Positions 38,932 through 41,749 of a stretch of 51,845 nucleotides of DNA are shown here, piece by piece; the stretch's first letter is position 1; the number at the start of each line of letters is the position of its first letter. The DNA comes from Promethearchaeota archaeon. GTDB lineage: Archaea; Asgardarchaeota; Lokiarchaeia; Sigyniarchaeales; SOKP01. The notes below the pieces were generated by a model that saw nothing but the letters and a program-made list of their open reading frames with translations, had not been told where the DNA came from and did not search any database. Both the position numbers and the translations under genes were made by a program. The stretch covers positions 1 to 51,845 of the forward strand of contig JBHLLU010000030.1 in the NCBI GenBank assembly GCA_048938895.1, written 5' to 3'.

Positions 38932-40422
38932 TTACCCCTTAACAACTCCTACTGGTACAAGTCTTACAACCTTTTCAACAATATCCAGATCATGACTCAC
39001 TTGAACCACTTGATCTATATCTTTGTAGGCTCCGGGACTTTCTTCGGCTAGCACTTTCATAGAGGCACTTTTTACTAAAATACCTTTCTTTCCTAAATCT
39101 TCTTGAATTTTAGTTCCCCAGTATCTTTTGACTGCTTTTGATCTAGACATAACTCTACCCGAACCGTGAGCAGTTGATCCAAAAGATAACTCCATGGCTC
39201 TTGGTTTACCAACGCATAAGTAAGAGGCTGACCCCATAGTTCCAGGAATTAAGGCAGGTTGACCAATGTCTTTATAATCTTGAGGTAAAACTGGGTGATT
39301 TGGAGGAAATGCTCTAGTTGCTCCCTTTCTATGCACATTTAATTTCATCCTTTTTCCATTTACTTCATGCTCTTCTATCTTGAGAATGTTATGGCAAACA
39401 CCATATATCATATGTAAATCCAACTCATCTAAATCTTTCTTAAATGCATTTTGAAAGGATTCTCTTAACCAATGTGTTATTAATTGACGATTTGTAAATC
39501 CAAAATTAGCAGCACAAGCCATTTGTTGTAAATAATTCTGTGCTTCAAGAGTATCCGCAGGTACACAAGCTAGTTCTCTATCAGGCACTTTAATCTTATA
39601 TTTTTTCATTGCTTGTTCTATTTTTCGCAAACTATCTGTACAAACTTGATGTCCTAATGCTCTACTCCCTGTATGAATCATTATAGTGATTTGATTCTTT
39701 TCAGTTATTCCTAATTTCTTAGCAATTGGGGTATTATAAATTTGATCTACTTTCTGAATCTCAAGAAAATGGTTTCCGCTTCCTAATGATCCAAGCTGTT
39801 TAATTGCTCTCTGTTTTGCTTTCTGTGACACCAAACTTGCATCTGCATTCTTCAAACATCCACGTTCTTCTAAGTGTTTAAGATCTTCGTCAATGGCATA
39901 ACCATTTTCTAACGCCCAATTGACCCCATTATTTAGTACTCTATCTAAATCTGAATAGCTTATATTTAGTTTACCTTTAGAACCTAATCCGGAAGGGATA
40001 TTATTAAATATTTTATCTAATAAATTTGGGAGTACATTTTTAAGATCGTTAAGAGATAGATTTGATCTTAATAAACGTACACCACAATTAATATCGTACC
40101 CTACGCCTCCTGGAGATATCATTCCAGTCTCAGCATCTGTCCCAGCAACCCCACCAATACAAAAACCATATCCTTGGTGGGCATCTGCTAATGCGATTGC
40201 ATGTTTTTGAATTCCTGGAAGGCATGCTACATTTGCGATTTGATCTAATGTCCGATCCTGTTTTATTTTTTCTAAGATATAATTATTGGCATAGATCTTG
40301 ACAGGGACTCGCATCTGGAATTTTTCTATATTTCCTTGAATACGCGTCATCAAAGTTTTAGGAGATATCTCATAGATATTCTCCTCAACTTTATTCACAT
40401 TCATACTGCAATTATAAGTCAA
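38932..40422 (-). CDS. rtcB: tRNA-splicing ligase RtcB (start possibly ATG 40404)
   Basis: DAHQGYGFCIG, GVGYDINCG, GSGNHFLE, HTGSR, HRKGATR, HGSGR, EESPGAYK; no intein. Confidence 0.98.
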   Translation of the reverse strand: MTYNCSMNVNKVEENIYEISPKTLMTRIQGNIEKFQMRVPVKIYANNYILEKIKQDRTLDQIANVACLPGIQKHAIALADAHQGYGFCIGGVAGTDAETGMISPGGVGYDINCGVRLLRSNLSLNDLKNVLPNLLDKIFNNIPSGLGSKGKLNISYSDLDRVLNNGVNWALENGYAIDEDLKHLEERGCLKNADASLVSQKAKQRAIKQLGSLGSGNHFLEIQKVDQIYNTPIAKKLGITEKNQITIMIHTGSRALGHQVCTDSLRKIEQAMKKYKIKVPDRELACVPADTLEAQNYLQQMACAANFGFTNRQLITHWLRESFQNAFKKDLDELDLHMIYGVCHNILKIEEHEVNGKRMKLNVHRKGATRAFPPNHPVLPQDYKDIGQPALIPGTMGSASYLCVGKPRAMELSFGSTAHGSGRVMSRSKAVKRYWGTKIQEDLGKKGILVKSASMKVLAEESPGAYKDIDQVVQVSHDLDIVEKVVRLVPVGVVKG

Positions 40423-40584: not shown

Positions 40585-40947
40585 ATGGTTTTATTAAATC
40601 TATATGATTACCAGATACCACAACAAATTCTTGGTTTACTCATATTTCTTGGTATCCCCTTAATGATCATTTTAGAAGTATATTTTGAAAAAATACGGAA
40701 AATATACCATGTGAAAACAATATTTGGGGTTTTATCAATCCTATTAGGTTCAATTATTGTCATTATAGCCATTTGGGGTAATATCGGATGGAAACCAGAA
40801 TATATACAACCTGTTTTAGGACCCCATTATAGCGATTATCGCTTTACTTTTTATGTAAGCATAATAATTGCTGTAGGATTAATCATATATGGAATGCTTT
40901 TAATTCATAAAGCAGTATTAGTGAAGAAAAGAGTTAAATACTTTTAA
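40585..40947 (+). CDS. Hypothetical membrane protein (about 3 TM)
   Basis: 120-aa ORF with three hydrophobic segments. Confidence 0.7.
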   Translation: MVLLNLYDYQIPQQILGLLIFLGIPLMIILEVYFEKIRKIYHVKTIFGVLSILLGSIIVIIAIWGNIGWKPEYIQPVLGPHYSDYRFTFYVSIIIAVGLIIYGMLLIHKAVLVKKRVKYF

Positions 40948-40963
40948 AAAATATTAATCGAAA

Positions 40964-41749
40964 TTATTTGATTTCGACAAAGGAAAGAAGCTCTAACTTA
41001 TCCAAGTTATTCATTATCTTCTGAATTTCTGATTCTGGGCGACCAGATTCTTCAGCAATGTCAGCAATCGTATGAAATCCGTCAGCTAAATGTGCAATCT
41101 CAAATTCTTCTTCATCCAATACTCCCTGTGCAACGACTTGTTTTGGTAAACGTTTACTAGTCCATTCTGGTTTGACGTCCTTCACTTCACGTAAGTCTTC
41201 CTCTGATAAGATTAATCCTTTCTTGGCAATTTGCTTCTGGGATTTAAGGAAATCTTTTTTAAAAATTTTCAAAATGGGAATCTTTAATTGGATCTCGGCA
41301 ACCTTACCACTCTTTAATATCTCATCTATTACACTCTCAAAATCTCGGAAAATCCTTACATCTCCAGACCAACCGTCAAGTTGATCACCAAATTTTCCTA
41401 CAAACTTATCAATTATATCAGTTAACGCTTTATGAGTAATTTTAGCATCATCATTTTTATCAGCGGCAGCAGTACATAAAACACCCTCCTTAAAGACTAA
41501 TAACAGGTAAAAAACCTGCATGTCTTTACTAATAGATAGAATCTATCTATAACCTATAACTTTAAGTTCCCCACTTCCCTTAGAGAACTCAACACTAAAG
41601 TCTTTAAGTGCTGTGAGAAAACCGCTGACTAAATCCTGATTAAATTCAATCCTCCCATACTTTCTGTGGATTAAACAAATACCCGTTCATAACCAATGGA
41701 GAACTCCCGTTGATTTATATTGGTGTATCAAGTAAAAATTATGTAAAAT
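40964..41749 (-). CDS. Longin-domain + winged-helix protein, three exons (41749-41716, 41685-41554, 41523-40964), 241 aa after splicing; ATT start
   Basis: Spliced N-terminus (I/M)LHNFYLIHQYTGICLIHRKYGRIEFNQDLVSGFLTALKDFSVEFSKGSGELKVIDMQVFYL is a longin pattern, in frame with the 185-aa ORF; SD-like GAGGTGA 9 nt before the ATT. Confidence 0.85.
41524..41553 (-). other. Predicted BHB intron 2 of the longin gene (30 nt, contains in-frame TAG)
   Basis: G-TTAT-AG^G-TTATAGATAG-ATT-CTATCTATTA-GTAA-AG^A-C: 4-bp central helix, two 3-nt bulges, 8-bp perfect inner stem. Confidence 0.85.
41686..41715 (-). other. Predicted BHB intron 1 of the longin gene (30 nt, contains in-frame TGA)
   Basis: CC-AATA-TA^A-ATCAA...TTGGT-TATG-AA^C-GG: central helix 3 bp + A.G, inner stem ATCAA/TTGGT, outer pairs CC/GG and ATAC/GTAT. 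Confidence 0.78.

Follow-up and report, generated by a model that had tools for sequence, protein, structure and literature searches.

How can a gene whose reading frame is broken twice by stop codons still specify a full-length protein? The question is raised by a stretch of 51,845 nucleotides (nt) from a Promethearchaeota archaeon of the Loki-type Asgard lineage (contig JBHLLU010000030.1, assembly GCA_048938895.1), here called the window, to whose positions all coordinates refer unless another contig is named. The genome with this locus measures 4.65 Mb, has about 30% G+C and is rated 98.7% complete. On the minus strand, positions 41749 to 40964 form a single reading frame with two in-frame stops, a TGA at 41689-41687 and a TAG at 41545-41543. 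Each stop lies within a 30-nt insert in a gene, the host gene, that appears to encode a longin-like domain followed by a C-terminal winged helix. The second insert, 41553-41524, is very probably a bulge-helix-bulge (BHB) intron of the messenger RNA (mRNA), spliced by the tRNA splicing endonuclease EndA and the ligase RtcB. The parts of the gene are as follows.

40964..41749, minus strand: host gene, longin-like with a C-terminal winged helix, three exons, ATT as first codon
41749-41716, 41685-41554 and 41523-40964, minus strand: exons of the host gene (stop included), from the alignment of orthologues
41686..41715, minus strand: predicted intron 1, 30 nt, in-frame TGA at 41689-41687; each boundary may lie 1 nt to either side
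41524..41553, minus strand: predicted intron 2, 30 nt, in-frame TAG at 41545-41543

Occurrence of the inserts among relatives

By six-frame search, 23 of 24 genomes sampled within the genus proved to have the host gene, and 49 of 53 in a larger set; 38 loci (alleles of the genus) were aligned with MAFFT. At the site of intron 2, 29 of these alleles lack exactly 41553-41524 and run K-V-I-D-M-Q straight through, and the other nine carry a 30-nt insert. Interrupted copies occur in 10 of the 50 genomes of the genus that have the host gene. When the search was widened to the order, 134 of 154 genomes matched, and interrupted copies turned up in nine genomes, from four other genera within the family of this genus; in families f2 to f4 seven genomes matched, and all of these had uninterrupted copies. 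Eleven of the order-wide loci were examined, of which nine carry an insert at site 2 (29 nt in two of them) and one ends at a contig edge. Of 80 loci retained from metagenomes, 65 had a recognisable site 2, and six of these carried an insert, giving four distinct sequences. Altogether, an insert of 29-30 nt at this site is known in 21 distinct alleles, which come from several genera and from metagenomes. The stop within it varies by allele (TAG, TAA or TGA), and the 29-nt alleles, G144 and G093, shift the frame. The site of intron 2 is occupied as well in a diverged paralogous copy of the gene (L157 in genome G083, E = 1.5e-58), by a 30-nt insert with a TAA.

DNA contigs from sequencing runs show both states of the locus. 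In runs X2 and X4, from other samples of the same study, the contigs that cross intron 2 or intron 1 show 0-3 differences. A contig of run X5, from another study, crosses intron 2 and differs at three places, at one of them by TAA in place of the TAG. In three runs, with one contig each, exon 3 is matched up to 41524, beyond which come letters like those that close exon 2 in an intron-less relative; these raw-assembly contigs show the same precise absence of the intron.

Geometry of the bulge-helix-bulge motif

The minus strand from 41560 to 41522 reads G TTAT AGG TT ATAGATAG ATT CTATCTAT TA GTAA AGA C. An earlier note on this DNA had described here a central helix with one G-U pair, two 3-nt bulges, an outer G-C pair and an 8-bp stem, with an in-frame TAG inside the intron, and all of these are found as it read them.

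41559-41556 with 41529-41526, minus strand: central helix (H), exon side TTAT with intron side GTAA, three A-U pairs and one G.U pair
41555-41553, minus strand: 5' bulge AG^G, predicted cut 41554/41553
41525-41523, minus strand: 3' bulge AG^A, predicted cut 41524/41523; its second letter varies between G, A, T and C across alleles
41530..41552, minus strand: inner helix (h') and loop, made of T-A, T.T and the perfect 8-bp stem ATAGATAG/CTATCTAT around the loop ATT (41542-41540)
41522..41560, minus strand: minimal outer helix (h), the single pair G41560-C41522, from the sequence and the 21 alleles
41503..41519, minus strand: hairpin in exon 3 with a putative role, 4 nt past the 3' cut, GCAGGT-TTTTT-ACCTGT

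The perfect stem pairs 41550-41543 with 41539-41532. In order to estimate how often such a motif arises by chance, a motif of equal quality was defined by four of four central pairs, the first outer pair and at least nine of ten inner pairs; at an intron length of 30, it is formed at 151 of 9,280,466 genome positions, a chance of 1.6e-5 at a given position. A blind scan of the whole genome for structure plus open reading frame (ORF) returned 41524-41553 exactly. The cut sites are also fixed independently of the BHB, by the alignment of orthologues.

Two further features of the intron had been pointed out by the earlier note. The first is a tandem heptamer, GTTATAG at the end of exon 2 (41560-41554) and again at the start of the intron (41553-41547), which it took as a possible record of how the intron was inserted. 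The repeat is there, and its reading as an insertion record is not supported: it is perfect in just 2 of the 21 alleles (G000 and G096), and other alleles have introns that start, for example, with GTTGTAA, GTTTTAG, ATCGTAG, ATTGTGG or AATTTTG. The second is that the intron starts with GT and ends with AG, which the note had set aside as probably coincidental; in agreement with this, both ends are present in just 7 of the 21 alleles.

Covariation and constraint on the exons

The BHB was written as a structure line, and the paired cells were counted for each allele and compared with 500 shuffles and with controls in which the pairing partner was slid along. In the nine alleles of the genus, 95.2% of the cells are paired and two pairs show double changes, with a covariation score that 25 of the 500 shuffles reach. 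In a set of 12 alleles, 91.1% of the cells are paired and five pairs show double changes, and on four of five measures no shuffle reaches the observed value. The same holds for four of five measures in all 21 alleles, where 92.3% of 313 cells are paired and nine of 15 pairs are double-changed (22 cells). When the partner is shifted by 1-3 columns, 36-52% of the cells pair. In all 21 alleles every cell of the central helix is paired (84 of 84), and the bulge lengths are constant. Its fourth pair alternates between G.U and A-U, and in L121 a U-A pair has been exchanged for C-G by a change of the exon codon GTT to GTC together with a change of the intron side from GTAA to GTGA. In the inner helix, 88.9% of the cells are paired and seven of ten pairs have changed on both sides; in some alleles wholly different hairpin sequences keep the pairing, such as TTGTTGTTAG/CTAACAATAA and TTTGCTA/TAGCAAA. 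As their outer pair, 16 alleles have G-C, three A-U and one G.U, and in one allele the pair is not formed.

The exon half of the motif is also protein-coding, and here carriers and non-carriers differ. With the junction marked by a slash, GTTATAG/AC is found in nine of nine carriers of intron 2 and in 1 of 29 non-carriers, and CACC..ATA/CGGGT, at the site of intron 1, in six of six carriers and 1 of 32 non-carriers. Judged from these alignments, the exon partners of the intron's pairing letters are fixed in carriers alone. The letters at the 3' bulge also locate the cuts. The cut at 41554/41553 is the sole position common to all alleles that yields GTT ATA G/AC ATG, and in alleles whose insert ends ..AA/AC, ..AT/AC or ..AC/AC only the joining of ATAG to AC restores an invariant aspartate codon, GAC. 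Because no other joining restores the aspartate in these non-G alleles, the cuts are pinned to 41554/41553 and 41524/41523, the same positions that the BHB predicts.

Downstream of the 3' cut, the exon hairpin at 41519-41503 is paired in 53 of 54 cells in the nine carriers against 142 of 174 in the 29 non-carriers, and all six of its pairs are formed in eight of nine carriers against 10 of 29 non-carriers. Elsewhere in the exons, GAGTT ... AACTT (41565-41590, minus strand) can form 5 bp; the codons for E-F and E-L largely dictate these letters, and no weight is given to this pairing.

Fate of the reading frame

When the inserts are removed in silico at the bulge cuts, all 38 alleles are open over 241 codons (242 in one); in the window the exons total 723 nt, that is 241 codons. 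The junction then encodes V-I-D-M, as in the intron-less orthologues. Together with the precise absence in relatives, the 21 alleles and their compensatory changes, this restored protein bears out the claim of the earlier note that a BHB intron probably interrupts a protein-coding mRNA. The exons are under purifying selection. Upstream of intron 2 the median ratio of nonsynonymous to synonymous substitution rates (dN/dS) is 0.028 in 10 carriers and 0.023 in non-carriers, and downstream of it 0.058 and 0.053, at a dS of about 1.5-2.

These values bear on the possibility that the insert is simply retained, so that the gene is dead in carriers or yields only a truncated product of 185 residues from the ATG at 41521. 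Such an ATG does stand directly after the insert, in the listed ORF 40964-41521, and the locus is in no RNA run. Against this, the first 55 codons are under purifying selection in carriers, and a dead or truncated gene is therefore disfavoured: the exons upstream of both stops, with a dS of about 1.5, are as strongly constrained as in non-carriers. Moreover, carriers span several genera, and compensatory changes accompany the conservation of the insert's structure and of its exon pairing partners, which a dead insert would not keep. We regard retention as very unlikely.

Another route to the full protein would be translational or would involve a different nuclease: a bypass of the type of T4 gene 60, recoding of the stop as pyrrolysine or selenocysteine, readthrough, or cleavage of the hairpin by an enzyme other than EndA. 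Known bypass and readthrough signals likewise consist of a stop beside a stable hairpin, and most alleles have AAA or AAG codons before GTT and before GAC, between which a ribosome might hop. Recoding as pyrrolysine or selenocysteine and readthrough are ruled out by the differing stops (TAG, TAA and TGA) and by inserts of 29 nt (intron 2) and 31 nt (intron 1), which shift the frame. The bypass was likewise rejected, as a hop between the sole matched codons, Lys..Lys, would cost the product its conserved V-I and, in AA/AC, AT/AC and AC/AC alleles, its invariant aspartate (asparagine or tyrosine would replace it in those with AA/AC or AT/AC). In addition, the features conserved are those of a BHB, namely a 4-bp helix between exon and intron and bulges of 3 nt, neither of which a bypass needs. 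The whole group of alternatives is thus highly improbable. A self-splicing group I or group II intron was also considered and rejected, since a ribozyme core takes hundreds of nucleotides and the insert has 30. Gene callers will report intron-bearing genes of this kind as broken or truncated.

Splicing enzymes and the neighbourhood of rtcB

If the insert is spliced as proposed, the genome should encode the enzymes. It has two ORFs of the EndA family (PF01974, both over the cut-off) of about 200 residues each, on its contigs C83 and C123, and an rtcB gene next to the interrupted gene.

38932..40422, minus strand: rtcB, RNA 3'-phosphate/5'-OH ligase, Pfam RtcB PF01139, E = 6.7e-170, 540 nt downstream of the host gene

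As is well established, the cut that EndA makes in a bulge follows its second letter. The pre-mRNA would fold so that exon TTAT pairs with intron GTAA, with 3-nt bulges on opposite strands and a hairpin of 8-10 bp closing inside. A heterotetrameric EndA built from the two paralogues would cut after the second letter of each bulge, and RtcB would join GTTATAG to ACATG, by which the TAG would be removed and V-I-D-M restored. The expected junction at intron 2 is AAAGTTATAG joined to ACATGCAG, and at intron 1 CAATATA joined to CGGGTAT. Intron 1 (41715-41686), of the same build, would also be removed, giving a protein of 241 residues. We infer the cleavage, the ligation and the identity of the enzymes. 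EndA is reported to cut inside each bulge (bioRxiv 10.64898/2026.10.13.758758), and for Asgard archaea an (alpha-beta)2 enzyme has been described, with an L1 loop that gives broad specificity (PMC5829648). The two paralogues of about 200 residues fit this enzyme, and the single-pair outer helix fits the relaxed type of motif that (alpha-beta)2 EndA reportedly cuts (PMC5829648).

Asgard tRNA genes are reported to be heavily interrupted (bioRxiv 10.64898/2026.10.13.758758; PMC11291895), and the count in this genome agrees: ARAGORN detected only 24 tRNA genes, 13 of them with introns, of which 12 measure 6-33 nt. The thirteenth call, of 1828 nt, is probably spurious, and many tRNA genes are probably too interrupted for ARAGORN to recognise.

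In 38 of 41 loci rtcB adjoins the orthologue of the host gene, three of these being from other families at 45-48% identity. The same-strand pair is conserved, with a gap of about 130-150 nt in most members of the genus. In the window, an ORF for 120 hydrophobic residues (40585-40947, plus strand) lies between the two genes and widens the gap to 540 nt; it matches no Pfam or NCBIfam family. L043 and L045 share the wider gap.

Weighing the evidence

Several results weigh against splicing of intron 2 by this route. The carrier alleles are related, so that the shuffle tests, including those in which none of the 500 shuffles reaches the observed value, overstate independence; the slid controls and the counts of pair types are unaffected. 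The motif, read from the sequence, is of the relaxed HBh' type and not a full hBHBh', as its outer helix has just one pair. The folding check proposed by the earlier note had a mixed outcome: the fold of minimum free energy (MFE) and RNAalifold both recover the hairpin and miss the A/U-rich central helix, over which RNAalifold prefers a competing outer pairing of 3 bp. Energy by itself does not set the region apart: an MFE of -10.2 kcal/mol compares with -7.19 +/- 2.14 in shuffled sequences, a difference that is not significant (z = -1.41), and equally good folds are reached by 19 of 200 shuffles. A search of sequencing runs found no RNA run containing the locus, and so no junction read or circular intron.

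The wider genome also lends no help. Genome-wide scans for a BHB plus an ORF gave no excess over a control of mirrored geometry (655 vs 608; 1798 vs 1917). Covariance models built for intron 2 (R1) and intron 1 (R2) find only themselves in this genome, the next hits having E of 2 to 7, in a search that scored 150 of 3016 (R1) and 150 of 1463 (R2) first-look candidates. Ten hand-picked candidates, among the top-scoring ones of the genome scan, were viewed by eye and none was convincing. Introns of this kind are therefore not a widespread feature of the genome that would lend prior support, and their commonness here cannot be claimed. The scan also gave candidates of 31-32 nt near gene starts, at C32:3140-3170 (-), C37:100301-100331 (-), C57:4126-4156 (+) and C1:21248-21279 (-), which are control-like in number and did not convince on inspection.

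Predicted intron 1 and other insert positions

Intron 1 has the layout of a BHB as well, with the following predicted parts.

41723-41722 with 41684-41683, minus strand: outer pairs CC/GG
41721-41718 with 41691-41688, minus strand: central helix, A.G followed by ATA/TAT
41717-41715 and 41687-41685, minus strand: bulges TAA and AAC
41714-41692, minus strand: inner hairpin

It is present in six aligned alleles, with a length of 30 or 31 nt, and shifts the frame in two species. In these six, 87.5% of the cells are paired and nine of 16 pairs are double-changed, values that none of 500 shuffles reaches. Changes in the helix between exon and intron include U-A to C-G and A-U, and G.U and G-C, and intron 1 is more variable than intron 2. 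RNAalifold extends the outer helix to ATAC.CC/GG.GTAT and misses the short central helix.

In another genus, the loci L150, L151, L152 and L153 (genomes G138, G140, G125 and G137) have inserts of about 29-37 nt at the 5' end of the host gene, each with its own hairpin. These lie a few nucleotides downstream of the position of intron 1 in the window, behind ACC GG where intron 1 follows A, and on our reading of the sequences would represent either a third intron position or one that has slid.

The host gene and its product

The orthologue search matches the gene of the window at 40967-41749. Its first codon (41747-41749, minus strand) is ATT, where orthologues use TTG, ATG, GTG, ATT or ATC; a GAGGT-like motif lies about 10 nt ahead of the first codon in the orthologues. 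These sequences suggest that the host gene and its orthologues use near-cognate start codons. Searches of the host protein with Pfam and NCBIfam profiles gave no significant family, with Longin, HTH_47 and TrmB below the cut-off. An AlphaFold model, with a predicted local distance difference test score of 68 (medium confidence), has an N-terminal domain of beta-beta-alpha-beta-beta-alpha order, longin-like, followed by C-terminal helices. Foldseek gave no hit against the PDB at E <= 0.001; the best matches, none of them significant (E >= 0.0097), are longin proteins, e.g. GATOR1/SEA subunits, AP sigma and Sec22b. On the model, intron 1 maps between strands 1 and 2, and intron 2 between helix 1 and strand 3.

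A possible origin of the introns

How did the introns come to be scattered among related species? The explanation considered, which is compatible with splicing, is that intron 2 is a selfish passenger that homologous recombination carries from species to species, with about 60 nt of flanking exon moving along (co-conversion). The intron would persist since the site permits a BHB, and would not be an ancient intron lost many times. The carriers are scattered over the gene tree, which itself rests on about 700 nt. Over some 100 nt around intron 2, with the BHB-paired letters excluded, the nearest neighbour of a carrier is another carrier in nine of nine cases, and over codons 90-240 in two of nine (chance about 1.9). 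The identity of carriers at third positions is 0.63-0.71 in codons 33-72 against 0.37-0.5 elsewhere, and is also raised in codons 9-16 for intron 1. The intron sequence itself keeps a mean column identity of 85-91%, though dS between carriers is saturated. On the other hand, structural constraint on the flanks would give the same pattern, and the exon hairpin at 41519-41503 is indeed kept in carriers with compensatory changes; nor is there a homing endonuclease or other mobility gene at the locus. The selfish passenger is thus a tentative possibility, and, as far as the alignments tell, the mosaicism of the flanks fits both travel with flanking exon by recombination and an additional structural constraint on the flanks.

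Comparison with known systems and significance

The kind of intron proposed here is already known from the crenarchaeal cbf5 gene. In Crenarchaeota (Desulfurococcales and Sulfolobales) the cbf5 pre-mRNA contains BHB-like introns of 16-44 bp, sometimes in frame (Watanabe 2002; Yoshinari 2006; Yokobori 2009, PMC2738675), which are reported to have been gained and lost among relatives and to be cut by a hetero-oligomeric EndA (PMC2738675). The two cases share a short BHB-type intron in coding sequence, too short to encode a homing enzyme, with some lengths that are multiples of three, a patchy pattern of gain and loss, and a host with a hetero-oligomeric EndA. They differ in lineage and in gene, as the present introns occur in a Loki-type Asgard lineage, two to a gene, in a longin-like and winged helix-turn-helix gene that is not the cbf5 pseudouridine synthase gene. 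In geometry, the central 3-4-3 arrangement is regular here, the inner helix long and the length almost fixed at 29-30 nt, whereas cbf5 motifs are often relaxed. Finally, splicing of cbf5 has been shown experimentally, whereas here it is deduced by comparing genomes.

A functional parallel is found in eukaryotes. In HAC1/XBP1 splicing, which is stress-regulated, paired stem-loops are cut by IRE1, ligation in animals is by RtcB, and the intron of XBP1 measures 26 nt. The likeness lies in the removal of a short intron without a spliceosome from a mature-looking mRNA, in ligation of the RtcB type and in a changed protein product; the nuclease IRE1 and its recognition motif are different, and regulation in the present case is conjecture.

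Among archaea, the HVO_1309 mRNA of Haloferax volcanii is likewise a substrate of the tRNA splicing endonuclease; its BHB intron lies in the 5' untranslated region, as shown in vivo and in vitro (PMC7714728), and those described here within the reading frame. That 2020 study names cbf5 as the only other BHB intron in an mRNA known at the time besides the Haloferax case; by its account, experiment has documented EndA-type introns in archaeal coding sequence for crenarchaeal cbf5 alone (PMC7714728). The tRNA introns reported from Asgard archaea (bioRxiv 10.64898/2026.10.13.758758; PMC11291895) have the same motif, a similar size range, presumably the same enzymes, and likewise repeated, lineage-specific gains; the substrate here is a translated mRNA. 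The literature searched, in full text, yielded no account of BHB introns in protein-coding genes of Asgard archaea; the supplements of PMC2738675 and of the tRNA-intron preprint may hold catalogues.

The locus thus adds an Asgard gene with two probable BHB introns, in a group whose tRNA genes are known to be packed with such introns, and the 21 alleles form a natural covariation series in which codons are seen to be recruited as the exon half of the motif. The kind of intron is known, and the features worth following are the mosaicism of the flanks and the conserved position next to rtcB; with the scattered distribution, these make the locus a tractable system for the study of how introns arrive and persist. 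That position and the C-terminal winged helix also invite a conjecture, which we consider unlikely: the host protein might regulate the RNA ligase or act as its partner, and the mRNA of the host gene might be translatable only after EndA has cut and RtcB has joined it at two sites. If this were true, synthesis of the host protein would report the capacity of the cell for RNA splicing and ligation, in a self-referential circuit that would be an archaeal counterpart of HAC1/XBP1 splicing. The introns would then be kept, or re-acquired by co-conversion, for their coupling to this capacity, and such a circuit would sit in the closest prokaryotic relatives of eukaryotes.

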